Positions 30,333 to 64,000 of a stretch of 64,000 bases of DNA are shown here, piece after piece. The notes under the pieces were generated by a model. That model had not been told where the DNA came from. It saw only the letters and a list, made by a program, of their open reading frames with translations, and made no database searches. Position numbers and translations under genes: made by a program. This DNA is from Lytechinus pictus (taxonomy: Eukaryota), in contig NC_087250.1 in the NCBI RefSeq assembly GCF_037042905.1, positions 19,842,001-19,906,000 of the forward strand, read 5' to 3'. Each line of letters begins with the position of its first letter. The first letter of the stretch is position 1.

Positions 30333-33300
30333 TACACAACAAAAAAAGTAAGCCCCCCCCTTGAACAAACATCAATAATTTCCGAACCAATACGAGTTTT
30401 TGATATATTTTTACATGAGCGTGTAGGTAATTTTATAAGCTACCATCTGAGTAAATGTTATGGATGTATTTTACGTCATGCTTCAGTGAGCACCGTCATA
30501 AGGCAAAAATGTCACTTTTCAAAAGTCACAAGCCAAAAATCATGACTTTGATTCCATTTTATTGGAACTGATTCCACATTCTTATCATGAAAAATAGTCA
30601 GAAGGCTTGTAAAAGGTACTTTCTAAAAGACGATACATTTTTTTGGCTAAATTTCACGGTTGAATAAACACAAGTCCAAATTTGCTATAATTGGATTTTT
30701 ACACATTTTCATCAATAAAAATGATAGAATATGATGACAGTTATTTTGGGGAAGAGTATCTTCAACAATATTCATCGTTTCACGGTTCAATGAACATTTA
30801 TTGAGAAAAAAAATACGGTTTTCAAATATCATAGGCAAGTATTGTTTCATTTTGGGAACTGAAACTGATCTTTTATCAATTTTTTTGTTATGTTCATGAC
30901 CAGTTAACACGCTCCAATGATTCAAAGGCGTTTAATTAAGCATTCACGCTTGAATGAACATGTGGAATGTGATTAGCTCTTTTTTACGTTATTGGAAAAA
31001 ATGCAATTTGTAACTATGGATATCTGTCTCAAACCTCCTTGCATGGTTCATTTGATTTGATTTTTATGAAAATCCCGATGTTTAATGCATCAGTGAGCAC
31101 ACAATATTCGAAAATTATGCAAATGAGAAGAAAGTTCAAGGCCTTGGCCCCACTCTGTGCCGTATCGAATTGTTATTTTGGTGTGCGCACCTTTTGGATA
31201 GTTTTACTCTGAAGCCATGTGCCAAGTTTCATGAAATAACTGTTGGCAGAAGTAACAAAAACCGTTCATGAAACAAACCCCTTATTTCATATTCGTTAAA
31301 AGTTTGACTTCCTCTCTAATAGACTTGTGTACATTATGGGTGCATATGTTTAAAGTATACATCCAAAGAATCAAAAGTATTTTATAATGACTTTATGTGG
31401 TCATCATTGTAAAGGGGAAGTATTACTAATCAGATATATAACTTCACTTTTCAAAATAGTGATCAGAGATTGCAGAAATCAGCTCTCAAAAATGATTTAT
31501 TTTCATGCCATCCCAGGTAACAAGCCAACGTTGGCTCCACGTTGGAAACTTGAAAGTCGTTGGACGTTGGGAAAACTTGATGGATTAACGTTGAATCGAC
31601 GTTGGAAACTAGTTTGATGGAAAGATGATGGACAATCAACAATGACACGACGTTGGCAACGTTGGAAACTTGTTAGTCGGAGAGTTGTTGGACAGTCGAC
31701 AATGTCACAACGTTGGAAACACGTTTGATTGGATAGTTGTTGAACAGCCAGCAAAGGCACAACGTTGGCAACGTTGGAAACTAGTTCGCTGGAAAGTTGT
31801 TGAACAACCGACAGTGGCACAACGTTGACAAAGTTGGAAACTAGTTTGTTGGAGATTTGTTGGACGGTCGACAATGGCACAACGTTGGAGACTAGTAAGT
31901 TGGAGAGTTGTTGGACAGTCGACAATGTCACAACGTTGGAGACACGTTTGATTGGATAGTTGTTGACAGCCAGCAAAGACACAACGTTGGAAACTAGTTC
32001 GCTGGAAAGTTGTTGAACAACCGACAATGGCACAACGTTGACAAAGTTGGAAACTAGTTTGTTGGAGATTTGTTGGACGGTCGACAATGGCACAACGTTG
32101 GAGACTAGTAAGTTGGAGAGTTGTTGGACAGTCGACAATGTCACAACGTTGGAGACACGTTTGATTGGATAGTTGTTGACAGCCAGCAAAGACACAACGT
32201 TGGCAACGTTGGAAACTAGTTCGCTGGAAAGTTGTTGAACAATCAACAATGACACGACGTTGGAAACTTGTTAGTTGGAGAGTTGTTGGACAGTCGACAA
32301 TGGCACAACGATGGAAATTAGTAGGTTGGAGATTAGTTGGATAGTCAACGATGACACAAGGTTGGCAACGTTGGAAACTAGTTCGATGGAAAGTTGTTGA
32401 ACAACCAACTATGGCACAACGTTGTCAAAGCTAGAAACTAGTTCGATGGAGATTTGTTGGATAGTCGACGATGGCACAACGTTGGAAACTGGTAGATTGG
32501 AGATTAGTTAGATAGTATACAATGACACAACGTTGATAAAGCTGGAAACTAGTTAGATGGAAAGTTGTTGAACAACTGACACTGGCACAACGTTGGAAAC
32601 TGGTAGATTGGAGATCAGTAGGATAGTCGACGATGACACAACGTTGGAAAGTTGTTGAACAACAGACAAAGGCACAACATTGGAAACTAGTGTGTTGGAG
32701 ATTTGTTGGACAGCCAACAACGTCACAACGTTGGAAACGCGTGTTTGATTGGATAGGTGTTGAACAGCCAACAAAGGCACAGCGTTGACTACGTCGGAAA
32801 CTAGTTCGATGGAGAGTTGCTGAACAACCGACAAAGGAACAACGTTGGAAACTATTTTCTTGGAGATTTGTTGGACAGTCGACAATGGCACAACGTTGAC
32901 AAAGTTGGAAACTAGTTTGATGGAGAGTTGTTGAACAACGGACAATGGCACAACGTGGACAGCGTAATTGGAATAGTTTATTGGACAGTTAACATTGACA
33001 CAATGTTGGAAACTATAGTTTGTTGGATATTTGTTTGACAGTCAACATAATATCCTGGCATAATATACACAGTGTTGAGAACGTTAGAAACTGGTTCATT
33101 GGAGAATTGATAATTGATAAAGTTGGCGGAGTACAGCAAGTCTGCATATGCCGACTTAACCCAAGACAAGACAAGACTACTGGCATAATTTCCAATGGGG
33201 CCAAGGGGGGGGGGTCGATCAAGTAAGTTTGCTTGTCTATCCATGTCACCCTTGGTATCCCCCAGCAATAAGGGGAAAAGAAATCGAGAGAGAAGGAAAA

Positions 33301-36300
33301 TAATGGGAAGGGAAAGAGGAACTAAAACTAAGTCTAAGGGGAAAACAAAAATAAAGATGGGGTAGAATAGAGAGGCTGCATGCACCTGGGGATGAATGTG
33401 TCGATTAATATAGAAAATAAAGAAGAAAAACAAGAAAAAAAATGTAGTTCAAGACCAGAATTTCCAGAAACGCCCTCGTCGATCCTTTGCAGCTGGCAAG
33501 GCCTTTCACAGTAAGTACGAGATATGTCATAGGCCTACCGTCACATAACTAGAAGAAATTGAAGAAGGAAATACAAGCATCAAATGTGCCTATTTAAAAA
33601 TACCATACTATTCTGATGCGCAGAATTAGTCGCGACGTCGGACTCCTTCTGTCATGTCTGTGTAGTCTGCTTCCTTCAATTTTGAACTTGAAGAATCTGG
33701 CAGAATTTGGACTGGATAGTGGATATAGATAAGTAAATTCCAGAATATCTAGTGATCTGGAACAGTACTTATAACCTGTATATTTAGGACCTACAATCTA
33801 CAGTTGAATTTTCTTTGCACTTGCAGATAATCGGTAACTGCAACCATTGATCCCCTCCGAAAGATCCCGGAGTCAGCTTCTGTGTGCGTACAGTCCGACG
33901 CTATAATATTCGTGTACTGTAAGTAGTAGTAAAGTAGTACTTAACACCAGTCACTGCACAGTATAACATACTAACTAACCTCGTAATTAGCTTGTGTGAG
34001 TGACTAATACTAACCTCGCAATACGTGTGAGTGGGAACGAGTATGCGATACCAATGGCAAGGCAACAGTCATTGGATGATTTTCAAAATTCAAGTACGTA
34101 CAGTGTTGAAATCTGGTGTTGGTGTATACTAATACTAACCTGGCAATACGTGTGAGTGTAACCCAGGGAGCTCCGGCCCGCTGTGCGGGCCGGAGCCCAG
34201 GGGCTTACCGTGTAATTCACAATACCCACGGTAGTAGCGTGAAGTATGGTCTAAATAATTATCCGAATAAATAGTTAAAACAGAAATTAAGCACTTACCA
34301 CGATTATATGGATGAAGGTCTAACGAGTGGCAGCTTCCTGACCCTTACAAAAAATTCCTGTAGTACTCTGTGATATGTACTGCAGGAAGTATCGCAGGAA
34401 AGTACTGCAGGAATTACGTGCACGTAATTTGGGACGGTACTACAGAAATGTACAACAGGAGTACAACAGGTCCGTGTCCTGTGATACTTCCTGTGGTAAT
34501 AACCGCATAAGTATGGCAGGAAGTATGACAGGACACGATCACCACAACCGCTACAACCGCTACAACCACTACCACACTACTATTAGTACTACAGGACAGT
34601 ATCACAGGATAGTATCACAGGATAGTATCACATGATAGTATGACAGGACAGTATGACAGGATAGTATGACAGGACAGTATGACAGGACAGTACTACAGGA
34701 ATACCGCAGACCAGTATCACAGGGAAGTACTACAGAACAGTATCGCAGGACAGTACTACAGGAGTACCGCAGGCTTCTGGTACTGTGTCCTGTAGTACTG
34801 TCCTGTGATACTGGTCTGGTATTCCTGTAGTACTGTCCTGTGATACTGGTCTGGTATTCCTGTAGTACTGTCCTGTGATACTGGTCTGGTATTCCTGTAG
34901 TACTGTCCTGTGATACTGGTCTGGTATTCCTGTAGTACTGTCCTGTGATACTGGTCTGGTATTCCTGTAGTACTGTCCTGTGATACTATCCTGTGGTGAT
35001 AAATAGTATGACAGGACAGTATGACAGGACAGTACTTTAGGAATTCCGCAGACCAGTATCACAGGAAAGTACTACAGAACAGTACTGCAGGAATACCAAG
35101 AGACCTTACCGCAGGACAATTCCTGCAGTACTGTCCTGTGGTATTCCTGTGATACTGATCTTTGATATCTTCTGTGGCATTATTGGTCTCATCCTGCAGC
35201 CTTCTTGTGATACTTTACTGTGGTAATCCTGCAGGGGTATTCTTGTTGATTTCCTGTGACAATCCTATGGTATTGTCCTGTAGTAGTCTGTGCGATTTTC
35301 TCACGACACCGTCCTGCACTGGTTTGTTAGGCGTAGTAGTTTGTAAGAATTTCCTGTGATCCAGCACAACAACTTTGACATCTTGACTAATGAAAAGAGG
35401 CATGAAAAAACCCACAAATTTGCAAAGACGTTAAAAGCATATTCACATACCTTTATTATGTATGAGCTGTACTATGCACAGTATAGAACATCTTTGATAT
35501 CATAAATGACTGCTAGAATAATGCAGTAACATTTCATCTTTAGGATAAGACATGTACAAAGATTTATATCCATGAACATTGAGATGCCACATGAACTACT
35601 TTCACTATTCATACATTGCTGCCATTTTGAGATCACATAAAGAAAGCTAGATTCGACCCAGAATCCTTCCCTCTAACACAACAATAAGCGATTATTATTA
35701 ATACCTTGGTCACATTCCTTGACCGGTTGCCTTACGGCGAGACAAAATCAGCAGTTTTAGGTATTCCTGTACAAACCACCCACGTGTAGCTGGTAGTAGC
35801 TGGTACAAGGATGATTAAGACTGTTAATTTTGACTCGACGTAAGGCCACGAGCCGGCGAATGTAACCAAGGCTTAACCAGTATTATGGTTGCAAAAAAAA
35901 CTGTAATAGCTGGGCAATTGCATTTTCCCCTTCTTGTCAACACCCGATTGGCTTAATACTAAAAGCAGAACATCCTTTACTCAACCATGTTATGAAACAA
36001 TGGATAACCACTTCTGCATGTACAGATAATGCATGGTGCACATACAGTAAGGGATGAAATTATGATGTGTTGATCACCAGTATAAACTTAAAGTACATGA
36101 ACGTAATCATAATCACTTCATTTTGCTCAGAATTCACTTAAGTCCATAAATACTGAAAGATATTTTTGAATGAATTTCACATGATTTAGAACGTTCACCA
36201 TAGGTTAGAAAAAATATGAACATAAGATTACTTTGCCAAAACGTAGATCAAATCTATTGAGACATTAACCTTTTTGACATTGAATAGGCATATCATTTTA

Positions 36301-38972: not shown

Positions 38973-41900
38973 TTATCCAAGTCTGTATAGCACGAGGCAG
39001 CTTAATCTGTAGAAAAAAAAACACATACCATTACGATAACATGAACAACATAAAAATACAAGAAATAAGGTGTTTTGCCCCCATCTAGATCTCTTTTCAC
39101 AAGTACATATCTATCGGATAATGAGGTCCTTGCGGCTATCTCTCTTAGCATATTCTTGCTTATAAAAGCAAACTAAGCCGAAGAGTGACAAACAATTTAT
39201 AATGCAAACAAATTGTCATAAGCACATATTGAAACTCTTTAATAAAACAATGAAGAATAAATCTACATCTTCTAACAAGGATTACACTGTATGCCACTGC
39301 ATGAATACAATCTGCTTAATTTTGTAATTATAATATCTACTGAAGTGAATGCCTATATAATCACCTTTTATGAACTCCAACCGTGTCTTGTACAAGAACA
39401 TGGCCTTTTCTGTGTACACCTGTAGTATCTTTCCCACATAATGCTGGACTTGCTGCTCGATCATCCAGAGATCCCTCTTTGAATCTTTAATGAAATGAAA
39501 TGAATTTGAGTGACATAGTAAAATTTTATTTGCAGGTTAATACAAATACATGATGTAATAAAAATACATGATAAAACTTCTTCATTTCCATATTTCAGTG
39601 TTACAATTCAGGTGCAAAGAGTCATATTCTTTAATAATATTCAACATAAAATCAATGAAAACTAGTGCTGTTGTCGATAGGCCTCATATCGACATTGATG
39701 TCGACATACGAAGGATTTTCAAAATTCCGACATGTCGACATGCACGCACCCACATCGACATGTAAACATAAAATAAAAAGGGGTCTAGCCTACAATCACG
39801 AGTGTAAAGATTAGCTGAAAAGTTAGAAGCATTTATCCACAGTAATTGGCGCGATTAAAAGGTTTATTCAGCTTAGCAGCGCATTAAATGAAAAAAGAAT
39901 ATCTGCGAGCTGTGCGGCAGTAGAAATACGTCAGTGCAGGGCCGGCCTGCCCGATCGAGCCGCCCTCGATATCCCGTTATAGCGAGAGTAGCATTCACCG
40001 TACCCATCCACGGAAATATGTACCCATCGCGCGCTATTCACCGTGCTTGATAATACGTTGCTCCTCAATGCATTACTTTTCACATAAACGTGAGCAGCAG
40101 CGAACACGTGTTTTTGTCAAAGTTGTGACTGCCGCAATTGAGCGCTTACTTCATATCACGAAGTCACAGAAAACTTCCCTTCATTCGTTTGGAGATCGCC
40201 GCGGAAGTGATACTGAAATTATCGGTCGATTTTCATTACTTTTCATTGTCAAATTGAGGAGCTTGCGTTTGCAGCAATGATCACTGTTGTAATTGGTGAT
40301 TCTCAAATTGGCTACGAGTGTTATTGAGCAATGCTTTCGAAACCGGATCCTGGTACAAAAACTTGATTCTCCAGAAAAAAAATGTGGATTAAATCGGTGA
40401 TTTTGGAAGCTCAATTCCCGAACTGAGCCTGTATTATATAGATCTAGTGTGGGGATATCACTCGTGTCAAGGTGAATATATTTGATTGAGAGTGTTGTTC
40501 CACGATCGAATGCTTTTTTTTTATGTTAGGGAGCCCAGGCTAAATTACGGTCCCTTTTTCATGTCGACATTGTCGATGTCGGGATTAATTTTTAAGCGAC
40601 ATGTCGACATGGATTTTTGTTCCCGACAACAGCACTAATGAAAACATTAAAAGTAGAGGAGCATTTTAACCTTACTCACAGTCTGTTATTGTCGCTAAAG
40701 TCTTTACAATAAGAAGATTGGGCACTTTGCCGACATCGCGTAATGCTTTGCATCGATTTACATGTATAATAGTCTTTGTGCCTAGTCTTTTCTATGTAGT
40801 GTCTATAATATGTAGATAAAACATGCGTCCTTTAGCTAGTTAGACGAACAATTTTGGAAATTAAAGACGGATCCATATTTTATCAACCGGAAGAGAAATT
40901 AGTGCTTAAATGAAGCTATTTGAGGGATATTGATGATATTTAGGGTGAATTGACTTCACATCTTTTCGTAAGTTTGTCATGTTCATAGAAGGCCGGACTT
41001 GATTTTATAGAAACCTCTTTTAAATTTGTGGGATTGCCTACCTCGAGTGAAGTTTGTGCAGGCTCCACTCCACTTCACTATTGCTACACTACGCTCCACC
41101 TACCCAAACTTTGAGACCGTGAACTGGATCTGTCGATCTGATATTCCGAGTGACAAAAAGTGGGATCTTATGGGGGGGGATATCAAATTCATGCAACATC
41201 ACGCTCTTTAAAAAAATTAAAACTAATATTCTTCCTGCACACAAAGTTTCAGTTCTTCTCCATGCCTCTATCCGTCTCAAAATTGATGATTTAGAGCCAA
41301 CATGAAGTTTCTCACACGTATCAATATTCAATACATCGCATGAGTGTGAGGTCGGTCGGGTCAGACCAGGCCCGGTATCTCGCGAATATTGCATCCGCAT
41401 GCAATGTTTTGAAATCGGCAGCGAATTATAAATATGTGTGAGGAACTTCATGTTGGCTCTAAATCACCAATTTTGAGACTGATAAAAGCATGGAACTAAA
41501 TGAAACTTTGTGTAAAGTAAGAATATTAGTTTTAATTCTTTTTAAAAATCAAGATGTTGCATGAATTTTATATTCCCCACCCCCATAAAATCCCACCTCT
41601 GTCACTCAGAATATCAGATCGAGTTCATGGTCTCGAAGTTCGCGTCTGTAACGTTGGCGAAGAACAATAGAAAACAAGATGGCGGCGTAAACATCGGGCA
41701 AGTCTCTTCCGTCTAATCATGATATTTTTCGCATTTTTTGGAATGAATTTCTTCTTCAAAAATAACGACGAGAGCGTAGAAATGTTGGAAATTAAGTTTT
41801 ATCCCATGTACATGATTTAGGTCTAACGTTAGGCTAGATCTTTTAGAGGGAAAGTAGAAATCTCGGGGCCGGGGGTGAAAGTTTCAAGTTTTGGCTTCCT

Positions 41901-42479: not shown

Positions 42480-45400
42480 CAAGCTTCGGGTTCAGCTGAG
42501 CAGTTACGAACGTTTTTTTTCAAATGGCGGAACCGGAAACACGTATACGGTACAGTCCGTGCGTTTGTACTGTACGGGGAGCTCGGAGGGGGGGGGGGGG
42601 GGGTCTTACTTTTTACTTGGCAACCAGACAATTTGACTATTTTCGCCATCATTTATATATCATATTATTAACGTAAAGGAATTGAATAAAGTAAAATTCA
42701 AATATTTATTTCTTCTTCCTTTCTTTTTCTTTTCTATGTCTTTTAATTTTTTTCTTTCTCTTTATTCTTTTTTTTAATATAATATATAAGGATAGGATTT
42801 AAAAACATGTCTCACAATTTTACTGAAAATATGTTATATAGGCCTACTAGTATGCAAGTAGGATGACAAAGAAAGCAATGAGGAAAATCACAGCTCCAAT
42901 CCTATGTATTTTTAATTTTATTTCTTTTCAAAAACACACATTTTATCCTTTCTTGCGATCGAAGGAAAGATCCCTTTATAAGGTTCAAGTAGTAAAAGAA
43001 AATAATCTTAGATCAAGTGCCGGCAGGGTATTTTGATAAGGGGTGGAGGAGCAAGACAAGCAAATATAAAGATACCATTTTGAAGCGAAACATAAGAAAA
43101 GATAATAACTTTGCCAACGAGGTAAAAAATAATATGATATCGGTTGTGACACTTTAAGGATGGAAAATAGTTTGAAAATATATAGATACAAACTTCATAC
43201 AAATTAGAAAAAAAGAAGCAAAATAAACTGCCATCATATGTGAACAGAGATACAAGATTGTTCTTGCAATTAAAAAACATATTTACAAACTATATATAGC
43301 TTCGCATCATAAAAATAGATTGAAAATATCCAAATTTATTTGATTTAAAAAGAAATAGATATAAACCAGCCTGGCTAACATATTGCAAGGTGGCAAAGAT
43401 ATAAACCGGGGATATAAAGCAAAAAATAGGCCTTAAAATGGAAATTAAATATCCTATTTTTAGTTTATCCTATCCCAGGTAACAATACAGCGTTGGACCA
43501 ACGTTGGATCAACGTTGGGAAATTTTTTCCCAACGTTGCCTCAACGTTGGCAGGCCAACGTTGCATCATCGATAGAAGTGCACGCGCATACATCGTCAGA
43601 CCAACAACATTTCCAACGTTAGTTCAACGTTGTCCAGCAACAATGTTTCAACGTTGTCTGGCAACGTTGATCCAATGTTGGCTAAATAGTCAAATACAAC
43701 ATTGCTACAACGTTGGTAAGCAACGTTGTATCATCGATAGAAGTGCACGTCCATACATCGTCAGACCAACAACATTTCCAACGTCAGTTCAACGTTGTCC
43801 ACCATCAATACTCCAACGTTGGTATAATGTCGGCTGAGTCATCAATAACAGCGTTGCTGCAACGTTGATGGGCAACGTTGAAGCAGCGATGGACGTGCAC
43901 TTGCATACATCGTCAGTCCAACTATGTTTACAACGTTGGTTCAACGCTGTCCAGCAACAATGCTCCAACGTTGTCTGGCAACATTGCTCCAACATTGTTA
44001 CAACGTTGTCACAACGTTGCTCCAACATTGCTCCAACGTTATTCCAACGTATGGCAGTAATTAACAAAACATTAATTGGTTTCAAGGTGAAGTCCACCAT
44101 TACAACTCTACACTCAAATCTTTATCATCATATGTCTTATCCTATCCTAAAATCCTACATCCTAATCCTATATCCTATTCCTATCATCCTACACCTATCC
44201 ACTGTATCCTGTCATTGACTCCTATATATAGAGCAACTTTGCTATACTTGGCAGAATACAGTTAATATCATTTTCCACACTTAACCTTGAATATTTCACT
44301 TAGAATAATATGTTTTGATTATATATGATATGGTAATGGAGCCACATACTTTTCTGAAACTTTTCATGGTGGAAATATTGAATAAACATAAATACTCTAA
44401 TTATTATAGCAATATTACCTAAAATTTTGGTCATTTACTGATGTAATGAATATTCATGAGTGCATAATCATTGTCCAGATGAGGCAGGTATGGCAGCGTT
44501 GGTCCAATGTTGGTCCAACGTTGGGTGACGTTGATCCAACGTTGGTATAATGTTGGTCCAATGTTGATGGAAAGTTGATTCAACTTTAGTCCAATGTTAG
44601 TCCAACGTTGGCGTAAACGTTGATTCAATGTTTGTCTAATATCGGTTAAATGTTGTTGTAACGTTGATTCTTTGTTGGTCTAATTCTAAACAAATCCAAC
44701 GATGCGCCATCTCCATCAAACAGTTTTCAACACTGTGCCATCATCATCTGTAATCTGTTCATGATTCTATCAAAAAACATTACAACTATTATTACAGCTA
44801 TTCATTTCTTTTCATTCTTTCTGTTACAAGTCTCTTCACATAATTAAGAGAAATCAAGATAATTACGTGTGATATTTATTGAGGCCTTTGTAGCATTCAA
44901 ACTTTTTTGACATCCTCTTTTTCTCAAACAAGACTAATACCAAAAAAAACATATGCATATGTAATAAAAATTAAGATGTATTACATTTTCTTGCGAGTTG
45001 CAATCTCTGTTTCTGTCTACAATTGTTTAATGACTCGGTATGCAATGCCAATTGCAACGTCAGTAATCATCACAAAAACTCACATGTGTAATTGCAGTCT
45101 CTCAGTATTTACAAAATCAAAAAAGGAGGTCGCGTAACTTGGCCTCACTCAGAGTAACGTAGCTACTGCCTACTGTAACTAAAGAGTGCCTCTTTTTGAT
45201 TAAGATAGAAGTCAACTGATATCTCAATATGCATGGCCATGGCCTAGTCTCGCTCGTGCCATAACTATTAAATGATATTTCAGCGTCAAGTGTAGCATGC
45301 CTCACATAGCAACTACAGGTTTGACTGCAGTTGGAAAACACTCGGTCCAGGCTAGGCCAGGCAGGACCGACCAAGTCAATTCAAGGCAGCGTATAATAAA

Positions 45401-46025
45401 TAAGGCAGGAATGCCAGGTAGCAAGTCATTTGGGTGATTTCAAGTACGGTGTACGGTGTTGAGAGCGTGAAAGGGCTGCTGAACTGAGCTCCAACACCAA
45501 GCGTAATATTATTTTTCATTGAAATGTATTAAAACTCTAATGATTTGCTCTCATCTTAAATGTAAAAGATAATTTTACGGAGATGGTTCGTCGTGTTCGC
45601 CCCCTGTTCGTAATTAAGCTACAGTTCATCAACACCAACACTGAACTTTAAATCACGATTCTCCCAATCCCTGGGGTACGTCGGTGTTGCTGAATGGGGA
45701 AATTGCTTGTAGATCATCAACACCATGCAGCCACAGTGCAGTGTTGGGTTCAGCAGATGACATTCAACACCAGCCTTCAACACAAACTGCCGGAAATACA
45801 CCATATTTTCCGAGGTCAATCTTAACACCAGCCTGATTCAAGTACGGTGTTGTCACAACACCAACACTAACCCAGGGAGCTCCGGCCTGCTCAGCGGGCC
45901 GGAGCCCAGGGGCTTACCGTGTAATTCAGCGTGTAATACTTCACGCTACTACCGTGGGTATGGTGAATTACACGGTAAGCCCCTGGGCTCCGGCCCGCGC
46001 AGCGGGCCGGAGCTCCCTGGGTTAC

Positions 46026-46204
46026 ACTCACACGTATTGCCAGGTTAGTATTAGTATACTAACCTCGCACCACGAACCGCGTTTGGCAGTGGATTTCTTA
46101 CTAGTGGGTCGCACGTGCTGGGATCTCACTTCTTGGGTCCACAACACACGACTTCTATGGCTTGATTTTTCTGTGCGCGGCGGCATGTAATGAACCCTTG
46201 GGTG
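46026..46204 (+). mobile_element. TIR-less ~180-bp element with 10-bp TSD CCTGGGTTAC
   Basis: ACTCACACGTATTG...GAACCCTTGGGTG; perfect direct repeats at 46016-46025 and 46205-46214; further copies at 57361-57560 and 57788-57974. Confidence 0.8.
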
Positions 46205-46972
46205 CCTGGGTTACACCAACACCAGATTTCAACACTGTACTTGAATTTTGAAAATCATCCAATGACTGTTGCCTTGCCATTGGTATCGCATACTCGTTCC
46301 CACTCACACGTATTGCGAGGTTAGTATTAGTCACTCACACAAGCTAATTACGAGGTTAGTTAGTATGTTATACTGTGCAGTGACTGGTGTTAAGTACTAC
46401 TTTACTACTACTTACGGTACACTAGCGTCGGACTGTACGCACACAGAAGCTGACTCCGTGATCTTTCGGAGGGGATCAATGGTTGCAGTTACCGATTATC
46501 TGCAAGTGCAAAGAAAATTCAACTGTAGATTGTAGGTCCTAAATATACAGCTTATAAGTACTGTTCCAGATCACTAGATATTCTGGAATTTACTTATCTA
46601 TATCCACTATCCAGTCCAAATTCTGCCAGATTCTTCAAGTTCAAAATTGAAGGAAGCAGACTACACAGACATGACAGAAGGAGTCCGACGTCGCGACTAA
46701 TTCTGCGCATCAGAATAGTATGGTATCTTTAAATAGGCACATTTGATGCTTGTATTTCCTTCTTCAATTTCTTCTAGTTATGTGACGGTAGGCCTATGAC
46801 ATATCTCGTACTTACTGTGAAAGGCCTTGCCAGCTGCAAAGGATCGACGAGGGCGTTTCTGGAAATTCTGGTCTTGAACTACATTTTTTTTCTTGTTTTT
46901 CTTCTTTATTTTCTATATTAATCGACACATTTGCATCCCCAGGTGCATGCAGCCTCTCTATTCTACCCCATC

Positions 46973-48008
46973 CAGGGGCGGATCCAGCTTTCGCCAAAAG
47001 GGGGGGCCGAAAAATATTTTCATCAACATTTTTCCCGATTGGCCCCTATAATCTGATTTTTTTCTTGGTTTTTCAGGGGGTAGTCCTAACAATAGACTGA
47101 AGTTTTAAGTATATGTTAGTTTTTATTGTTATAAACAAGATAAGGTATCTCATGTGGTCTTAATATATAATGCGAGCGCGATGTGCGAGCTAAAATTCTT
47201 TGATATTTTATGTCCTTAGAACTGAAGATTCTGAGCATTTTTTATAATCATGAACAAAAATAAGTATCCAACTAAACAATGCGAGCGCGAAGCGCGAGCC
47301 GAAATTTTATTATAGTAACGTGAAAAGGGACTCAATTAGGACTATTTTTAGTGATTAATGAAAAGGATACAAGTATCACCAATTAAATAATGAGAGTGCG
47401 AAGCGCGAGCTCTAAATTTTTGATATTCCGACCTGAAAACTGGACAGTCTAAGCGCCTATTTATTTAAATAAAGAACAAGCTGTGTGTCTCAATAATTTG
47501 TTGGTATACTCACATGATAAAGGAGCATTTTGACAAATTTTGGAAAGAATTTCCAAAGAGGATAGGTATCTCACAAATTAAACAATGCGAACGCGCAGCG
47601 CGAGCTGAAAATTTTGATACAACAATTTGTGTAAATCAAACAAAATAATGAAAGCTTGATGTGCGAGCTAAAATATTGTGTGCAAATTGATTTCAGAACT
47701 GGATATATTAAGTGTCCTTTAATCCTCTTGAATGGGATTCATTACACAGGCAATGCAAACGCGAAGTGCGAGCGAAAGTTTTGATATAAAGTCTATTTTC
47801 CAATTCTTCCCCTCACCTTTTTCTTGTTTCCTTTCGGGGTCGGGCCGGCCGTTACGAGGCTGTAAATTACATGGGTATAATAACCTCTTTCCTACTTTTC
47901 TGTCTGTTTTTCGTAGTTTCTATCAAGTTAAAGAGTACACTTTTCTGCAAGTTGTAAAAAAATAGGGGGGGCCGGGGCCGGCTCGGCCCCCTCCTGGATC
48001 CGCGCCTG
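46973..48008. mobile_element. MITE with 5-bp TSD CCATC
   Basis: TIR CAGG(G/C)GCGGATCCAG; the empty site (a single CCATC) is present in the outer AB copy at about 33356-33360. Confidence 0.92.
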
Positions 48009-51000
48009 CCATCTTTATTTTTGTTTTCCCCTTAGACTTAGTTTTAGTTCCTCTTTCCCTTCCCATTATTTTCCTTCTCTCTCGATTTCTTTTCCCCTTA
48101 TTGCTGGGGGATACCAAGGGTGACATGGATAGACAAGCAAACTTACTTGATCGACCCCCCCCCCTTGGCCCCATTGGAAATTATGCCAGTAGTCTTGTCT
48201 TGTCTTGGGTTAAGTCGGCATATGCATGCAGACTTGCTGTACTCCGCCAACTTTATCAATTATCAATTCTCCAATGAACCAATTTCTAACGTTCTCAACA
48301 CTGTGTATATTATGCCGGGATATTATGTTGACTGTCAAACAAATATCCAACAAACTATAGTTTCCAACATTGTGTCAATGTTAACTGTCCAATAAACTAT
48401 TCCAATTACGCTGTCCATGCACGTTGTGCCATTGTCCGTTGTTCAACAACTCTCCATCAAACTAGTTTCCAACTTTGTCAACGTTGTGCCATTGTCGACT
48501 GTCCAACAAATCTCCAAGAAAATAGTTTCCAACGTTGTTCCTTTGTCGGTTGTTCAGCAACTCTCCATCGAACTAGTTTCCGACGTAGTCAACGCTGTGC
48601 CTTTGTTGGCTGTTCAACACCTATCCAATCAAACACGCGTTTCCAACGTTGTGACGCTGTTGGCTGTCCAACAAATCTCCAACACACTAGTTTCCAATGT
48701 TGTGCCATTGTCTGTTGTTCAACAACTTTCCAACGTTGCCAACGTTGTGTCATCGTCGACTATCCTACTGATCTCCAATCTACCAGTTTCCAACGTTGTG
48801 CCAGTGTCAGTTGTTCAACAACTTTCCATCTAACTAGTTTCCAGCTTTATCAACGTTGTGTCATTGTATACTATCTAACTAATCTCCAATCTACCAGTTT
48901 CCAACGTTGTGCCATCGTCGACTATCCAACAAATCTCCATCGAACTAGTTTCTAGCTTTGACAACGTTGTGCCATAGTTGGTTGTTCAACAACTTTCCAT
49001 CGAACTAGTTTCCAACGTTGCCAACCTTGTGTCATCGTTGACTATCCAACTAATCTCCAACCTACTAATTTCCATCGTTGTGCCATTGTCGACTGTCCAA
49101 CAACTCTCCAACTAACAAGTTTCCAACGTTGCCAACGTCGTGTCATTGTTGATTGTTCAACAACTTTCCAGCGAACTAGTTTCCAACGTTGCCAACGTTG
49201 TGTCTTTGCTGGCTGTCAACAACTATCCAATCAAACGTGTCTCCAACGTTGTGACATTGTCGACTGTCCAACAAATCTCCAACAAACTAGTTTCCAACTT
49301 TGTCAACGTTGTGCCATTGTCGGTTGTTCAACAACTTTCCAGCGAACTAGTTTCCAACGTTGCCAACGTTGTGCCTTTGCTGGCTGTTCAACAACTATCC
49401 AATCAAACGTGTTTCCAACGTTGTGACATTGTCGACTGTCCAACAACTCTCCGACTAACAAGTTTCCAACGTTGCCAACGTCGTGTCATTGTTGATTGTC
49501 CATCATCTTTCCATCAAACTAGTTTCCAACGTCGATTCAACGTTAATCCATCAAGTTTTCCCAACGTCCAACGACTTTCAAGTTTCCAACGTGGAGCCAA
49601 CGTTGGCTTGTTACCTGGGATTCCACCTGTAAAAAATATTGTGAATAGGAGAACAAATATTGAAGTAATTTTATTTATAATAATATATTTGTAAGAAAAT
49701 AGGTCCTTTTTACAAAAAAAAATAAATAAAAAAATAGATGGGAAACTTGGAAAAATGTATTTTCTCGCAATAAAAACTTTAAGGGGCCAGAATCGCATTA
49801 AAACTTGGTTATGAAACGTGTAAAACAAAATCTTAGATAGCATTTTAACTGAGATTTATTTTTTAATCAACATTCAACGCTGAACTTTCTTATGTTAATT
49901 GTTTATCAATATTTTGTGAAAACAGATAGTGTGCACATCGTCATGAATATTCATTTGGTGGGCTGATGATGTGACATTCCCATTTTTCTTTTTTAATGTT
50001 AGATATGAAATTATGATTATCTATTTTTTCAATACATGTGTAAATAATGTGTCCCCATTGTAAAGTTGCTGCATTAAATAACTAATGCGGTTAATTAGTC
50101 GTCATTCCAATTGTTTAAGTTCTTGGTAGAAATATGTTGAATAAATCTAATTTCATATATTGTACAAAAGAACATGGGATATGACATCATCAGCCCACCT
50201 AATGAATATTCATGAGACATGCCTAAATAAAACTGTTTCATGGGAATATTGCAAATCCTTAAAATTCAACTTAACTTCGTTATTTGTCATCCGATTTTGA
50301 ATAAATTTTAAGCATTTTGTTTTGTGAATTTTACTCTATTTATTGATTATCTCTAGCGTTGACCTCCCCTTCAATTATTTTCTTGTATTGTTAGAAAGAG
50401 ATGGATGAAGTAGAATAATACGTTCATGCTTATATTTTTATTCATTACAATATCTCTTTGAAATTCAACCCGGCTTCCTCACAACCATTAAGCTCTAAGA
50501 GTGTTAGGTGTGTCCTGTATATTTCAACACGTACCCTTTTAAATATAGTCATTTTTTTATTATTCATCCTGTTTTTTATGAAAAATAAGTGGCGAACAAA
50601 CAAAACAAAAATGATAATTGAAATTTAAAAGAGCGCATGAAAAAGAAATAACCCTGAAAACGAACAATAGTCCTCAAAATATAAGTTGCCCATTTTGGGG
50701 TCAATAATTTTTCGCATTTTTCAGTTCGCGCTTTGCTCCTAGTTTTGATCTAGTACGTATAGTACCCTTTCTCGTAGAAATAGAAGCTATCAAACTTAAA
50801 ACCTCTGAGTCTCAGTAGGCATAACCCCCCCCCCCCCTCGCTGATATAGACCTACACATATGGGACAGGGTGAAATATAATTTTGAAATAGGGCCTATAT
50901 GTCACAATCTAGCTATCACAAAATTAAATTTTCATATAAAAAATTGTACTTTTTAAAATGAATGGTGCCCTTTTAAGCCATATGGCCTTCTAAAAATATA

Positions 51001-54000
51001 AGACTCAATACGCTACTGACCTCTCCCGAAACTGAAAAAAAAGATAAATCCCTCACTGGAAAAAAAAAAATTAGTCTGTGGTACAAACAGGGCTTCCATA
51101 CAAGTACTGAAGGAAACTAATTTTTTCATGTACTGTACCACAGAAAATACACCAGTAGCGTCTGTGATACAGTTTCAGTCATATTTCTGGGGTGGCTGCA
51201 TGAGAAGTACCGCAGGAAATTTTGAAAGTATAGCACTGGGGTTGCCATAGAATTTTAGAAGTGCCTATATTGAGTCCTGCAGGAAATTTCAAAATTTTCA
51301 TTTACCACAGAAGTATCACAGGGTTTTCATAGAAGTGCTTAGTAATAGGAGTACTGCAGGAAATTTAAAAAATGTTCATATACAACAGAAGTATCGCAGG
51401 GTTGTCATAGAAGTACTGCAGGATATTTTAGAATTTTCATGTACAACAGAAGTACGACATAACTATCACAGAGTGATATTGTATACAGTTATGTACAACA
51501 GAAGTATTACACAGGTACGACAGAGTACCATTAAGGTATTGCATGAAATTTTCATATTTTTACGTACAGAAGTAGAACTATCACAGAGTGATACCACAGG
51601 AGTCCTGTAGTAATTCCTTATACAGTTTTGTACAACAGAAGTATCACACAGGTACGACAGAGTACCATTAAGGTATTGCATGAAATTTTCATATTTTTAT
51701 GTACCACAGAAGTATGACAGAACTATCACAGAGTGATACCACAGAAGTCCTGTTGTAATTCTATATACAGTTTTGTACAACAGCAGTATCACACAGGTAC
51801 GACAGAGTACCATTAAGGTATTGCATGAAATTTTCATATTTTCCTGTACCACAGAAGTATGACAGAACTATCACAGAGTGATACCACAGAAGTCCTGTTG
51901 TAATTCTATATACAGTTTTGTACAACAGAAGTATCACACAGGTACGACAGAGTACCATTAAGGTATTGCAGGAAATTTTCATATTTTCCTGTACCACAGA
52001 AGTATGACAGAACTATCACAGAGTGATACCACAGAAGTCCTGTGGTAATTCTGAGGTACCGTCGTGTATGACAGAAGTATCACACAGGTACAACAGAGTA
52101 CCACTAAAGTACTGCAGGAATTTTTTGTAAGGGGACATCGAGGCACAGACTGGAACCTAAAAAAAACGAAAAGTTCTGTGGCGGTAGCTCTCCTCTTTCA
52201 GAATTCAAAACAAAATGGCCGATTGAGACCGAGACTAATAGCACTAGTGCATTAGTATACATCTCTATGATATAGACTTTGTCAAATTCGCCCATGCGCC
52301 CTACACCCTCGGTACCGGTCTCGAACGGCCATTTTGCTATGAATTCTGAAAGAAGGAGAGCTACCGCGCGACATAACTTTTTCGTTTTTTGAGGTTCCAG
52401 TCTGTGCCTCGATGTCAGGAAGCTGCCAATCGTTAGACCTTCATCCATATAATCGTGGTAAGTGCTTAATTTCTGTTTTAACTATTTATTCGGATAATTA
52501 TTTAGACCTACTTCACGCTACTACCGTGGGTATGGTGAATTACACGGTAAGCCCCTGGGCTCCGGCCCGCTGAGCGGGCCGGAGCTCCCTGGGTTAGTGT
52601 TGGTGTTGTGACAACACCGTACTTGAATCAGGCTGGTGTTAAGATTGACCTCGGAAAATATGGTGTATTTCCGGCAGTTTGTGTTGAAGGCTGGTGTTGA
52701 TTGTCATCTGCTGAACCCAACACTGCACTGTGGCTGCATGGTGTTGATGATCTACAAGCAATTTCCCCATTCAGCAACACCGACGTACCCCAGAGATTGG
52801 GAGAATCGTGATTTAAAGTTCAGTGTTGGTGTTGATGAACTGTAGCTATTACGAACAGGGGGCGAACACGACGAACCATCTCCGTAAAATTATCTTTTAC
52901 ATTTAAGATGAGAGCAAATCATTAGAGTTTTAATACATTTCAATGAAAAATAATATTACGCTTGGTGTTGGAGCTCAGTTCAGCAGCCCTTTCACGCTCT
53001 CAACACCGTACACCGTACTTGAAATCACCCAAATGACTTGCTACCTGGCATTCCTGCCTTATTTATTATACGCTGCCTTGAATTGACTTGGTCGGTCCTG
53101 CCTGGCCTAGCCTGGACCGAGTGTTTTCCAACTGCAGTCAAACCTGTAGTTGCTATGTGAGGCATGCTACACTTGACGCTGAAATATCATTTAATAGTTA
53201 TGGCACGAGCGAGACTAGGCCATGGCCATGCATATTGAGATATCAGTTGACTTCTATCTTAATCAAAAAGAGGCACTCTTTAGTTACAGTAGGCAGTAGC
53301 TACGTTACTCTGAGTGAGGCCAAGTTACGCGACCTCCTTTTTTGATTTTGTAAATACTGAGAGACTGCAATTACACATGTGAGTTTTTGTGATGATTACT
53401 GACGTTGCAATTGGCATTGCATACCGAGTCATTAAACAATTGTAGACAGAAACAGAGATTGCAACTCGCAAGAAAATGTAATACATCTTAATTTTTATTA
53501 CATATGCATATGTTTTTTTGGTATTAGTCTTGTTTGAGAAAAAGAGGATGTCAAAAAAGTTTGAATGCTACAAAGGCCTCAATAAATATCACACGTAATT
53601 ATCTTGATTTCTCTTAATTATGTGAAGAGACTTGTAACAGAAAGAATGAAAAGAAATGAATAGCTGTAATAATAGTTGTAATGTTTTTTGATAGAATCAT
53701 GAACAGATTACAGATGATGATGGCACAGTGTTGAAAACTGTTTGATGGAGATGGCGCATCGTTGGATTTGTTTAGAATTAGACCAACAAAGAATCAACGT
53801 TACAACAACATTTAACCGATATTAGACAAACATTGAATCAACGTTTACGCCAACGTTGGACTAACATTGGACTAAAGTTGAATCAACTTTCCATCAACAT
53901 TGGACCAACATTATACCAACGTTGGATCAACGTCACCCAACGTTGGACCAACATTGGACCAACGCTGCCATACCTGCCTCATCTGGACAATGATTATGCA

Positions 54001-55523
54001 CTCATGAATATTCATTACATCAGTAAATGACCAAAATTTTAGGTAATATTGCTATAATAATTAGAGTATTTATGTTTATTCAATATTTCCACCATGAAAA
54101 GTTTCAGAAAAGTATGTGGCTCCATTACCATATCATATATAATCAAAACATATTATTCTAAGTGAAATATTCAAGGTTAAGTGTGGAAAATGATATTAAC
54201 TGTATTCTGCCAAGTATAGCAAAGTTGCTCTATATATAGGAGTCGATGACAGGTTACAGTGGATAGGTGTAGGATGATAGGAATAGGATATAGGATTAGG
54301 ATGTAGGATTTTAGGATAGGATAAGACATATGATGATAAAGATTTGAGTGTAGAGTTGTAATGGTGGACTTCACCTTGAAACCAATTAATGTTTTGTTAA
54401 TTACTGCCATACGTTGGAATAACGTTGGAGCAATGTTGGAGCAACGTTGTGACAACGTTGTAACAATGTTGGAGCAATGTTGCCAGACAACGTTGGAGCA
54501 TTGTTGCTGGACAGCGTTGAACCAACGTTGTAAACATAGTTGGACTGACGATGTATGCAAGTGCACGTCCATCGCTGCTTCAACGTTGCCCATCAACGTT
54601 GCAGCAACGCTGTTATTGATGACTCAGCCGACATTATACCAACGTTGGAGCATTGATGGTGGACAACGTTGAACTGACGTTGGAAATGTTGTTGGTCTGA
54701 CGATGTATGGACGTGCACTTCTATCGATGATACAACGTTGCTTACCAACGTTGTAGCAATGTTGTATTTGACTATTTAGCCAACATTGGATCAACGTTGC
54801 CAGACAACGTTGAAACATTGTTGCTGGACAACGTTGAACTAACGTTGGAAATGTTGTTGGTCTGACGATGTATGCGCGTGCACTTCTATCGATGATGCAA
54901 CGTTGGCCTGCCAACGTTGAGGCAACGTTGGGAAAAAAATTCCCAACGTTGATCCAACGTTGGTCCAACGCTGTATTGTTACCTGGGATATTTCTGCCTT
55001 CCACCGGTCCTCTTGCGAGCTCCAGCTGAGTGACGTCACACAATGAGCAGTGAGCAGCTGAGCTGACAGCAGCCCATTGGAGACGATCTTTCCAATCAGC
55101 GTTTTTTGCTCTTAGAATTGTTTATTCCTCTTAAGATTGGTCTTGTTATATAGATAAAAGTTTGAATTTACTGAACAGTGAAAAAAGTGCACATTTAACG
55201 TATTTTGGTGACCGATATTTAGCTTAGAATTTTTTTTTTTTTTCAAGAAATATAGGTGAATAAACAAAGCATATTTTCACGTAGAAATCACACTTGCGTC
55301 ACATTAATGTTATAGTCAATATAAAGCATAGACATTCTTCTTTATGACTGAACAAAAATTATGAAATTTCATTAAGTAGCAAAGTCAGGAATCACAAAAA
55401 AAACACGGCAATATCCATCGCGAAATGACTGAAATTGCAGTTGAATTGCCGAAGCATTATTAGGAAACAGCGGCGAGCGGACTTTCTTTCATATATCTTA
55501 AAAATGCCTTCCTGTTAGGGCGA

Positions 55524-55599
55524 TGGTCTGTGGCCAAATGCGTTGGCCATTGTTTGGTCATGTGCGAGGACCCTGGTTCGAAACTCGGATTTTTTTTTT
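55524..55599 (+). pseudogene. Degenerate tRNA-like Pol III unit
   Basis: A box TGGCCAAATGCG (55531), B-box-like GGTTCGAAACT (55575) at tRNA spacing, followed by T10; stems are poorly paired. Confidence 0.35.
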
Positions 55600-57078
55600 C
55601 TGGGTATTTTTTTTTTATTCCTTCCCCGTCCCTACCCATCTTTTTTTTCTCTTTTTATTTTCTTGTGAAATTCTATTCAGACCTGTATTTATCAAATCTT
55701 GCTTCTTAATTGCTGCTTTTGATTTTCAAGTTCTTGATTAGATTATTTCTACTCTTATTTGGGATGGGAGGGGTAGAGTTAAAAGTCAAGTCCACATCAA
55801 CTAAAAATTATTTGAATAGAGTGATTTCCCTTGTTGTTTTTACTCAAAACAGTCATATACACAAAACAATGATATGCAAATTAGAGTTGTCACTCACATC
55901 ACATTCGTTTCTATTTTTTGTGGCATTTTGTTTTTTATTCTTTGCAGATTTGACGATAGGAAACTCTTCATCTGATCACAATAGGTTATATTTACGGAAC
56001 TGTTAAATAGTAATTATATAAATTTGAATCAAAGTTTTTATGAAATTTCCTGCAATATCTTGTTATTTTTCTTTAAATTCAAATGAATTTTTGATTGCGT
56101 GGACTTCTCCTTTACTCTTAATGTAGGGAATGCATAGCAAAATTTATCCAGAAACAAAATTGTCTTAGAATATGCAAATCAGTAATTGGACACATGTTCA
56201 CTTTTCTTTCATCCAGGCCACTTCCTCACATCCACCAGGCTTTCAGTCTGATGATGAACCATCACACAACATTCACAGTGCTTCACAATAAATATTTCAC
56301 TTCTGTTCATACATGCAATAAATATTGTGGAAAACAAATAAAAGGCGTACCCATATTCAAATACCGTTTAAAAGGACAAATATATTATACCTTTCGAGAA
56401 AAATCAGCACGTTAAATATCTGATAACAAAACATAATTATGGGGCACTGCAAGAAACTTATGTTCAATTGCAAATCAAGCGTAAGTCTTAAATTCAAATT
56501 TAAGCGTAATAAGGTCGAGTTGCAATCGCAATTCAACTACATGTTTAATCAAAGGACTTTCCCTTGATTTGGGACGTGTGATTGAGTATAACATTTCTCG
56601 CAAAATGCCCTAGTAACATTAAAATTGTTCTTTCGTTTTAAATTGTGTGTTATTATTTTTGACAAGCTGTATTCCTGTCCGAGTAAAATTTCTTAGTTCT
56701 CTCCAAAACTGTGCTCAAAATTGTTTCCAAGATTGATAAAGAAATTTTTTCTTTTGTATCATTATCATTCCACAACTTGCAAACCGTAGGTCCTGGAAAG
56801 AGTGAAGAAAAAAATGGCTATATCCAAATCATAGTAAAAGGACATGATGGAATCTCCCAGATTGAGGTAGCAAGCAGAGACCAGAAGTCACCAGAGTTAG
56901 CAATTGTGCAGATCTGTGTGTAGAAGAGAGAAAAAAAGAAATAGTTTAAATAATCAAATCAAAGTATGAATTTAATTATCGTGATGATTGATGACGTGCG
57001 GTGGCATGTAATTCCCGGTCAACAACAAATGATAGTAGGTTTAGACACCTGAAAAGTTCCACTCAGAACACTGGTGCT

Positions 57079-57237
57079 CTACCTCAAGTGATGTTTGTGT
57101 AGGCCCCACTCCACTTCACTACCGCTACACTACCGTACATGTACGCCACACCTACCCGGGTAAGTGTGTAGCGTAGTGTAGGCTGTAGCAGTACTCCAGT
57201 AGTGAAGTGGAGACTACACGAACATCACTTGAGGTAC
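57079..57237. mobile_element. Small hairpin MITE
   Basis: TACCTCAAGTGATGTT ... AACATCACTTGAGGTA; a half copy lies at about 41040-41105. Confidence 0.7.
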
Positions 57238-57360
57238 GGTGCTCTCTGAGTCTCTGTGTCATTACAAAGATTGCATTTATCTTCATTGTTGAAGGCATTA
57301 CGCATACATATATGCAGCAACACTCTAATCAGAAAGAAACACCAGACTCTAATTTTGGCC

Positions 57361-57560
57361 CACCCAAGGGTTCATTACATGCCGCCGCGCACAGAAAATT
57401 CAAGCAATAGAAGTCGTGGACCCAAGAAGTGAGATCCCAGCACGCGCGACCCACTAGTTAGAAATCCACTGCCAAACGCGGTTCGTGGTTAGTATACTAA
57501 TACTAACCTTGCAATACGTACTAGTAGTATACTAATACTAACCTCGCAATACGTGTGAGT
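57361..57560 (-). mobile_element. Copy of the TIR-less element with 10-bp TSD AATTTTGGCC
   Basis: Perfect direct repeats at 57351-57360 and 57561-57570. Confidence 0.8.
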
Positions 57561-57787
57561 AATTTTGGCCAGGAATCAGGGTAATCACTGCTGAAAATTT
57601 GTCTGGCTTCATGACATCGGCATCATGGTGATATAATTCTGTGTATAATAAAAACTTAAACATTCCTCTGAAACAGCAGATTTTCAGCCATGGTCCATAC
57701 CACTCAGTGCTCCTAAATAATTTAATTGCCTGCCTGAGTCCTGACCAGTTTTAGAAATCTGAAGAAAAAATCTGCTGGAATTGTGCC

Positions 57788-57974
57788 ACTCACACGTATT
57801 AAGTATACTAACCCCGCACCACGAACCGCGTTTGGCAGTGGATTTCTAACTAGTGGTTCGCGCGTGCTTAGCCTGGAGGCGTCTGGGATCTCACTTCTTG
57901 GGTCCACAACACACGACTTCTATGGCTTGATTTTTCTGTGCGTGGCGGCATGTAATGAACCCTTGCCTTGGGTG
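57788..57974 (+). mobile_element. Copy of the TIR-less element; TSD GAATTGTGCC / GAATTGTACA
   Basis: Same termini as the other copies; 8/10 flanking match. Confidence 0.7.
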
Positions 57975-59231
57975 GAATTGTACAAAAACATTATTTCTAA
58001 AATAAAAACTTTTTAATTTTAATAGTAGTTATGCCAAAATGCATGATTCTAAACTTATATCAGATCTGTATCTGTCATCTGACCTGAATGCATCGTCAGA
58101 ACAAGTACAGTTTCCAAACATGCTTACCTTGACTTTTGACTGGATCAAACAGCGTAGCCTGCAACATGCATCGGGAGCAAGTGAATGGGACCGTGCAGCT
58201 TGGAGTTTTTCAATAGTTAGTAGAGCAACACAACGAAGACTGTCGAGTGGACAAAATCGATCTTTCCAGTTCACAATTCAATAAAAAAACGGGCAAAATA
58301 ACACAGTTCTGGTTCCCTTATAGTCTGAAGTTGTCGAAAACAGAATTCGGATGTCACATTACATGAAGAAAACGGTAAATTCGGAAGATATTGAAGAGGT
58401 CAGTAAGGTGATTCAGTGTATTATGCACAGAGGGATGATGAGCTCGATTATTGTGTGACGTCATTATTCTCGACTGTTTTCACTGCGTGAACTGTCGGTC
58501 TGGGGGGCGGCTGGGGGGCTTAGAATGGTCTCTAATAATTTCATTTCTTGCATTTCCACGACATCGATAAGACTTTTTAGTGACATATTTGTGTATAAAA
58601 AGACAAGACCTTTCCATTCATATATAATTTGTCTATAATCATCACTTTCGTGAATTTTCTTTGTGTGTATACTTTAAGAATAAGTAATCCCTTATTCAAT
58701 ATGGTGGAACTTTTTTTCAAGGCTGTCTTTAGCAATGTCATTTGGCAGTAACGTTTATCAACCTATGGGCAGAATTCTGTGCAAAAATGAAATCGATTTG
58801 TTTATTTACGGATGAGTGAGCACGCATCAAAGTGGGAAAATTGGTATTTTCAATGTCACAGACTCATTTTAAAGGGTAATAAGGTGAATATTGGGGGCAA
58901 ATTCGGTTTCAAATGTGACTTTAATTGCTGTTGTTTTTATCATCCATCATTTCTATCTCCACAGACTTTCCGAACTTTAAACATTTTCATGGTTGAGCGA
59001 GCACATTCGAAAACTTAGGAATGAATACTCTTTATACTGCATAAATGTATTCTGTTTCTAACAATTTCTCATGATCAGTTTAATTTATGGACAAATCAGT
59101 GGTGGATCCAGAATTTAAAAATGGGGGAGGGGTTTATAATCGGGGGAGCCACCAACATTTTCAAATTTTAATATGACCTAACAAGTTGTAGAGGATACTA
59201 CCAAAAACCCCTATGATGATACGTCACAATA

Positions 59232-63427: not shown

Positions 63428-64000
63428 TTTTTTTTTTCTTTTCCTCGTTCAGAGGTACTTTATTCTTCATATTCCTTTCTCATTTTAACAATTTCTTTCG
63501 AGGCACAGTGCGTGTAGAGTTACAAAACAAGTTACATATAAACATGTTATAGACATCAACAATTTAATCTAAAATGTGATAAAGATGAAATTTCTCTATA
63601 GGGTTAAAGCTCTTTGAACATTTGAATTAAATGAACATTGGATTTAAATCGCCATTTTACATAAAAAAGTATCTCTTTCTTGAACTCATACCAAATTGAA
63701 TATATATTAAAAGCTCTTCCTTGCCTCTTATACATGACATAAGATTTGAATATTGCATACTGTGCAAATATCATAAACAAGTTAACCAACGTAAACTTGC
63801 GATTGTGAATTTTGTATCCAATGAACAACGTCGTTTCGTTAATAGGAATTGCAATTTTAAACATAAATTGCAGAGAATTCTTTATCTTTATCCAAAAATT
63901 GGCAACAGGATTACATTCTAACATAATATGAACAAAAGTTTCTTCTGCTTCACAGAACATACAAGATGTGTCATTAGCTAATTTCCAACGACATAAATTG
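63428..64000 (-). mobile_element. 3' end of an L1/Tx1-type LINE
   Basis: ORF2 C-terminus, short 3' UTR, AATAAA (63464-63459) and A-rich tail (about 63442-63428). Confidence 0.8.
63604..63999 (-). CDS. LINE ORF2 C-terminal CCHC zinc-finger (zf-RVT-like) region; open to the window edge
   Basis: NLCRWKLANDTSCMFCEAEETFVHIMLECNPVANFW... contains the C-x2-C-x7-H-x4-C...FW motif. Confidence 0.85.
   Translation of the reverse strand, partial: NLCRWKLANDTSCMFCEAEETFVHIMLECNPVANFWIKIKNSLQFMFKIAIPINETTLFIGYKIHNRKFTLVNLFMIFAQYAIFKSYVMYKRQGRAFNIYSIWYEFKKEILFYVKWRFKSNVHLIQMFKEL

Follow-up and report, generated by a model that had tools for sequence, protein, structure and literature searches.

A 180-bp mobile element, very probably a non-autonomous DNA transposon, with 9-bp target-site duplications and vestigial terminal inverted repeats in Lytechinus pictus

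A stretch of 64,000 nucleotides from Lytechinus pictus (NCBI RefSeq assembly GCF_037042905.1, contig NC_087250.1, positions 19,842,001 to 19,906,000 of the forward strand), here called the window and numbered from its first letter, contains three full copies of a short repeat. The full element, represented by copy 1 at 46025..46204, is 180 bp long and runs from CACTCAC to GGGTG. It is genuine, occurs in multiple copies, has a 9-bp target-site duplication (TSD) and vestigial terminal inverted repeats (TIRs), and is very probably a non-autonomous DNA transposon. The copies are 95-96% identical over aligned bases (indels apart, 164 matches and 9 mismatches between copies 1 and 2, and 161 and 6 between copies 1 and 3) and each is flanked by a direct repeat of its own, which bears out the starting observation of an earlier note made from the sequence alone. 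Copies 2 and 3 form a head-to-head pair, and copy 1 has inserted into a miniature inverted-repeat transposable element (MITE). The copies and their parts are placed as follows.

46016..46024 (+): left TSD of copy 1, CCTGGGTTA, identical to the final 9 bp of the MITE into which it inserted
46025..46204 (+): copy 1, 180 bp, CACTCAC…CCTTGGGTG, without indels relative to the majority of other copies
46038..46069 (no strand): subterminal hairpin at element positions 14-45, with 14-bp arms, a 4-nt loop and one mismatch in copy 1
46205..46213 (+): right 9-bp TSD of copy 1
57352-57360 and 57562-57570: TSDs of copy 2, matching 9/9 (a 10/10 reading is possible)
57361..57561 (-): copy 2, 201 bp, with T at position 1, an internal 5' duplication and two 7-bp deletions
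57562..57786 (no strand): the 225 bp separating copies 2 and 3, whose 5' ends face each other
57778-57786 and 57975-57983: TSDs of copy 3, matching 8/9
57787..57974 (+): copy 3, 188 bp, with a 13-bp deletion in the hairpin, a 16-bp insertion and a 5-bp duplication near the 3' end

The boundaries of the element were mapped by aligning contigs from four of 14 public runs containing the stretch (21, 281, 787 and 1 contigs) to positions 45940-46295; statements on the loose ends of these contigs hold among the 19 entries listed, beside which there are 224 further ones. Contigs break before 46025 (15 in run X11 and 26 in run X2, none listed for X1 or X3) and behind 46204 (2, 13, 40 and 1 across the four runs, 56 in total). 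Agreement between flanks at the ends is only 0.37-0.45 in X11 and X2, and the element must therefore occupy many different insertion sites. The precise shared ends described earlier from the window copies are thus found sharp in many contigs, although the 5' boundary had been set one base too far in and lies at 46025, 57561 and 57787. The C at 46025 is part of the element and not of the flank, because a flanking C would put about three quarters of the contig breaks at 46026, where none of the listed loose ends falls. A 16-bp motif from the 5' end has six matches in the window against 0.02 expected, two of which (at 34 kb) duplicate those at 46 kb, leaving four independent 5' ends; three of these four sites have C at the corrected position, and copy 2 alone has T.

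By themselves the window letters fit two readings equally: an element starting ACTCAC with a TSD of 10 bp, or one starting CACTCAC with a TSD of 9 bp. The 10-bp version, close to the length of about 10 bp first proposed, is ruled out for the family by the loose ends together with the C at the 5' sites; it survives for copy 2 only, which can also be read as having a 10-bp TSD and a lost terminal C. An 8-bp TSD is ruled out as well, since all three copies match at the ninth base too, whereas the position just outside the C varies from copy to copy. The TSD of the family is 9 bp, with CCTGGGTTA on both sides of copy 1 (9/9), GGCCAAAAT on both sides of copy 2 (9/9) and GAATTGTGC/GAATTGTAC around copy 3 (8/9). 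Among 2,952,696 background pairs, a 9/9 flank match occurs in 136 (4.6e-5) and a match of at least 8/9 in 1,093 (3.7e-4). The same length appears in tandem arrangement in an X11 contig (depth 4.5), where a 3' end is followed by eight letters and the base at 46024 and then by a 5' end, giving a 9-bp spacer that agrees with the 9-bp TSD.

The tips of the element read CAC…GTG, and the terminal six bases match in five positions as an inverted repeat (CACTCA/CACCCA; P ~0.004 in 100,000 shuffles, post hoc), whereas the inverted match over the terminal 30 bases is only 8/30. The description of the element as having no TIRs therefore holds for long TIRs but not for the tips: it is not strictly TIR-less, having a 6-bp imperfect inverted repeat and the 14-bp subterminal hairpin, which begins 13 nt from one end. 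It is without coding capacity. By pattern matching it contains no poly(A) signal (AATAAA), TATA or RNA polymerase III (Pol III) A or B box, and no Rfam match was found in the window, in line with the absence of a poly(A) tail and Pol III boxes noted before. Exact inverted repeats of at least 6 bp within the element include no asymmetric TIR pair. The DNA fold of the element is ordinary (z -0.9); the fold of its antisense RNA is modestly stable, surpassing 197 of 200 shuffled sequences (z -2.6). Five of the eight lesions in window copies touch the hairpin (P 0.006-0.03, post hoc), and only two of nine deletions in contigs start there (P ~0.5); the hairpin is not established as a breakage hotspot.

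An X3 contig (depth 4) carries the 3' flank of copy 2 and is gapless over 46073-46204, so at least one of the deletions in copy 2 is probably later than its insertion. Run X2 is labelled as a different organism, and its majority bases depart from the others at 46073, 46134 and 46136, which suggests a second subfamily. Four X2 contigs have only the last 42 bp of the element in common (loose ends before 46163) and then diverge; they may represent a sister family or the parent. Plurality letters in the flanks at 46025 and 46204 hint at a weak palindromic G-N7-C target bias in X11 and X2. Three insertions adjoin the end of an older element, at offsets of -9 (copy 1 in its MITE), 0 (the dimer in X11) and +9 (in X2, a contig where 18 bp of spacer lead up to a variant 5' end), these being all three end-adjacent cases seen. 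The offsets are a weak lead, three cases being too few for a claim.

Both ends are exact, the TSD has a single length, the tips are symmetrical and a dimer is spaced by one TSD. Together these features point to a DDE transposase acting in trans, and it is very probable that the element moves by cut-and-paste with a 9-nt staggered cut. The proposal that a constant TSD and precise ends indicate a DDE enzyme, probably of a Mutator-like element (MULE), is supported, and has been strengthened by the other genomic copies; membership of the MULEs is undemonstrated, no parent with a transposase having been found. On balance, we lean towards placing the family in the MULE/MuDR superfamily, among its members with degenerate TIRs (the 'non-TIR' kind). 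The MULEs are the best fit because they give TSDs of 8-11 bp and include TIR-less families; their TSD is usually 9 bp, as it is here (9/9, 9/9 and 8/9, with the 9-bp tandem spacer). A transposase encoded elsewhere in the genome would bind two unlike subterminal regions, a mode of recognition proposed because there is so little TIR, and would cut at the CAC/GTG tips and join the element to a target opened with a 9-nt stagger, gap repair then yielding the 9-bp duplication. Copies would also land locally, head to head 225 bp apart or in tandem at a shared target; these close pairs suggest local reinsertion.

MULEs have TSDs of 8-11 bp and long TIRs of 14-500 bp, and some families have none (PMC6446971). 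TIRs are entered as 'none' for Curupira2 of Schistosoma japonicum, which has a 9-bp TSD, and for MuDR-6_HM of Hydra and MuDR-4_Cgi of oyster (PMC6446971, Table 1 and supplement 2), so the view that non-TIR MULEs are known mainly from plants was too strong. Arthropod MULEs have TIRs of 13-1,193 bp (PMC13359780), and in Arabidopsis the TIRs of VANDAL elements are absent or short and degenerate (PMC6446971). The 180-bp element is like the non-TIR MULEs in its 9-bp TSD (Curupira2, the VANDAL group) and in its absent or degenerate TIRs; it is unlike them in being 180 bp and non-coding, with no known parent, where they are kilobases long and carry a transposase. The comparison is one of TSD and TIR description. 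A head-to-head pair of VANDAL21 about 200 bp apart generates rearrangements (PMC12312487), and the 225-bp head-to-head pair resembles it by analogy only.

Several observations count against the reading as a cut-and-paste transposon of the MULE kind. Both TSDs are visible in three copies only, with one tandem spacer besides, and copy 2 also fits 10 bp. The long TIRs that are a hallmark of MULEs are missing (8/30, with 5/6 at the tips), so the fit is to the non-TIR subgroup only. No transposase domain was found by Pfam in the 150 longest of 172 filtered open reading frames (ORFs) of the window (239 in total). The longer element with the same two ends and a transposase, which the earlier note had recommended looking for, was found neither in the window ORFs nor in six collection scans (two viral, two metagenome and two prokaryote-genome), where either end or the middle gave 0 matches; these collections were not expected to contain the element. 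The P superfamily typically has CA…TG ends, and CACTA and Transib typically have CAC…GTG; neither form is specific to MULEs. Finally, the MULE table of PMC6446971 has 0 echinoderm entries.

It is possible, though rather unlikely, that the same cut-and-paste process is served by a transposase of another long-TSD DDE lineage (P/Galileo-, hAT- or Merlin-like, or undescribed) cutting with a 9-nt stagger. The weak hint of a G-N7-C bias in the plurality flanks of two runs speaks for such an enzyme. In the P superfamily the ends are CA…TG, as in the 180-bp element, the perfect TIR is longer and a 7-bp TSD is also on record; the element thus has the CA…TG termini of that superfamily but not its TSD of 7-8 bp. 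The TSDs of P and hAT are about 8 bp and P dimers are spaced by 8 nt, which counts against this lineage because the 8-bp reading fails here. Dimers of the P element with a spacer of TSD length (8 nt) mark double insertion at one target (10.1101/158386); the dimers are alike in being separated by one TSD, and differ in that it is 8 bp in P and 9 bp here. Elements of the CACTA/EnSpm and Transib groups share the CAC…GTG ends and have TSDs of 2-5 bp, a length that the 9-bp TSD does not match. Ends resembling recombination signal sequences, as in Transib, were also considered: of four positions tested, a single one, with a spacing of 23 nt, gave a nonamer match of 6/9 (P ~0.012), and the heptamer matches 3/7 at both ends; these matches were taken as chance. 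Dada is a TIR-less animal DDE transposon with 6-7-bp TSDs in small-RNA genes (PMC3706591), and resembles the 180-bp element in lacking TIRs and in tandem copies separated by the TSD; the 9-bp TSD and unrelated targets set the present element apart from Dada.

Still more doubtful is an origin from an undescribed DDE lineage that joins CAC…GTG tips and a 9-nt stagger to the absence of genuine TIRs, of which the element would be a miniature docking in a 9-bp register beside transposon ends. A protein already bound at an element end would position the incoming transpososome, a scheme that takes up the offsets of -9, 0 and +9.

It is very unlikely that the element is a solo terminal repeat of something longer, either a long terminal repeat (LTR) retroelement with unusual ends or a KolobokP-like composite, left by recombination or moving by itself. 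Solo LTRs and solo long terminal direct repeats (LTDRs) are likewise short, asymmetric and precise-ended, with tiny TIRs and a fixed TSD. Nevertheless, neither TATA nor AATAAA occurs in the element, no common internal sequence follows beyond either end among the loose ends listed (flank agreement 0.37-0.45 in X11 and X2, as above), and integrases give TSDs of 4-6 bp, which counts against a solo LTR. KolobokP is present in echinoderms, and its solo LTDRs resemble the 180-bp element as short asymmetric units with short imperfect TIRs from marine invertebrates; they are unlike it in their RR…YY ends, 11-18-bp TIRs, 3-5-bp TSDs and repeat lengths of 450/660 bp (PMC9587614). A rolling-circle (Helitron/Helitron2-type) or RNA-based, short interspersed element (SINE)-like origin, with the hairpin as termination signal and the direct repeats produced by repair or target-primed insertion, can be given next to no weight: the 14-bp hairpin 13 nt from the end, the antisense RNA fold (z -2.6) and the TSDs of 7-19 bp of the Helitron2 elements CRe-1,2,3 (PMC3627910) would suit it, but the TSD does not vary in length, both ends are equally sharp, the ends are neither TC…CTRR (Helitron1) nor T-initial with asymmetric TIRs and two hairpins (Helitron2), and a Pol III box, a 3' tail, an Rfam match, a variable TSD and 5' truncation, as expected of a SINE or other retroposon, are all missing, the truncated window copies lacking their 3' part and not their 5' part.

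As a non-autonomous element probably mobilised by a MULE transposase, the 180-bp family is a clean addition to the known families of non-autonomous DNA transposons. Being 180 bp long, with an end symmetry confined to six imperfectly matched bases, it would set a minimum for what TIR-free transposition in an animal requires in cis, and families with such ends escape TIR-based annotation. Should the parent be a MULE, echinoderms would join the few animals for which non-TIR MULEs are listed; should it not, a 9-bp TSD could no longer be equated with Mutator. While the transposase is active, local rearrangements are predicted from the head-to-head pair. Under the Repbase rule (PMC4455052), a non-autonomous element is classified by sharing its TSD length and first 11 bp, with at most one mismatch, with a classified element. 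Literature term searches found no published description of the family, a weak negative since Repbase or Dfam is usually the sole place where families of this kind are entered.

The surroundings of copy 1 and the fragments of the family in the window are these.

43471..54990 (no strand): 11.5-kb foldback enclosing copy 1, with 2,458-bp arms that are 99.6% identical
45859-45867 and 46214-46222: 9-bp TSD of the host MITE, CACCAACAC
45868..46024 (no strand): 157-bp palindromic MITE, TAACCC…GGGTTA, host of copy 1
46301..46331 (+): 31-bp 5' fragment that stops in the hairpin loop
46332-46365: diverged second CACTCACAC start, right after the 31-bp fragment
34124..34158 (-): duplicate of the copy-1 locus, the element lost from within the hairpin to past its 3' end, with 3-bp microhomology
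34003..34033 (-): duplicate of the fragment at 46301

The target of copy 1 was exactly the last 9 bp of the 157-bp MITE. Loose ends at 46024 (16 in X11, 40 in X2) fix where the MITE ends, and contigs with a single copy of the host sequence (one in X1, five in X11) support its own 9-bp TSD. This MITE has many copies in X11 and X2, and half copies at 34159-34247 and 52509-52596. The foldback contains CAACGTTG-type tandem arrays, and a part of its interior (about 45936-49605) recurs in reverse orientation at 31760-34342. All copies had been thought to lie inside other transposons; this is shown for copy 1, in a MITE within a foldback, and is unsupported for the other two copies, whose flanking sequences occur only once in the window. 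A perfect 14-bp inverted repeat around TGACGTCA (55031-55044 and 58450-58463, 3.4 kb apart) encloses these two copies and could be the remains of a decayed host transposon. At 57080-57236, just upstream of copy 2, lies another miniature element in the form of a 157-bp imperfect palindrome with 36-bp arms (89%), of which there is a partial copy at 41038-41092. A single composite element with these two copies of the family as its TIRs is excluded, since the outer flanks of copies 2 and 3 differ and each copy has its own TSD.

The 5'-end fragment reported near 46302 is present, at 46301..46331, and the diverged start that follows it at 46332 may be an older relative of the 180-bp family. A long element beginning at 46301 or 46332 was considered and rejected, no partner TSD or 3' end being found in the window.

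An acceptor-like and a donor-like site on the opposite strand had suggested a potential for exonisation. Once the ends are corrected, these two sites delimit 165 nt of antisense sequence in copy 1, which has one open frame, only by way of a private T at 46099; the family base there is A (in all depth of X1 and X3, and >98% in X11 and X2), which gives a stop. Copies 2 and 3 have no open antisense frame, and the element contains no polypyrimidine tract. In a search confined to the 'dna' kind, none of the runs containing the stretch was recorded as RNA. On the letters, exonisation finds no support, and the idea was set aside.

Within the same 150 ORFs, matches above the curated Pfam cut-offs were to EF-hand domains only, at 17.5-17.7 kb, and an EF-hand coding exon with canonical splice sites at 17580-17725 (+) is the only clear host coding sequence detected. 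A weak zf-RVT match under the Pfam cut-off at 63607-63999 (-) is possibly the end of a long interspersed element. Purine-rich 76-bp minisatellite blocks with strong strand skew are duplicated at 24940-26237 and 28112-29607.

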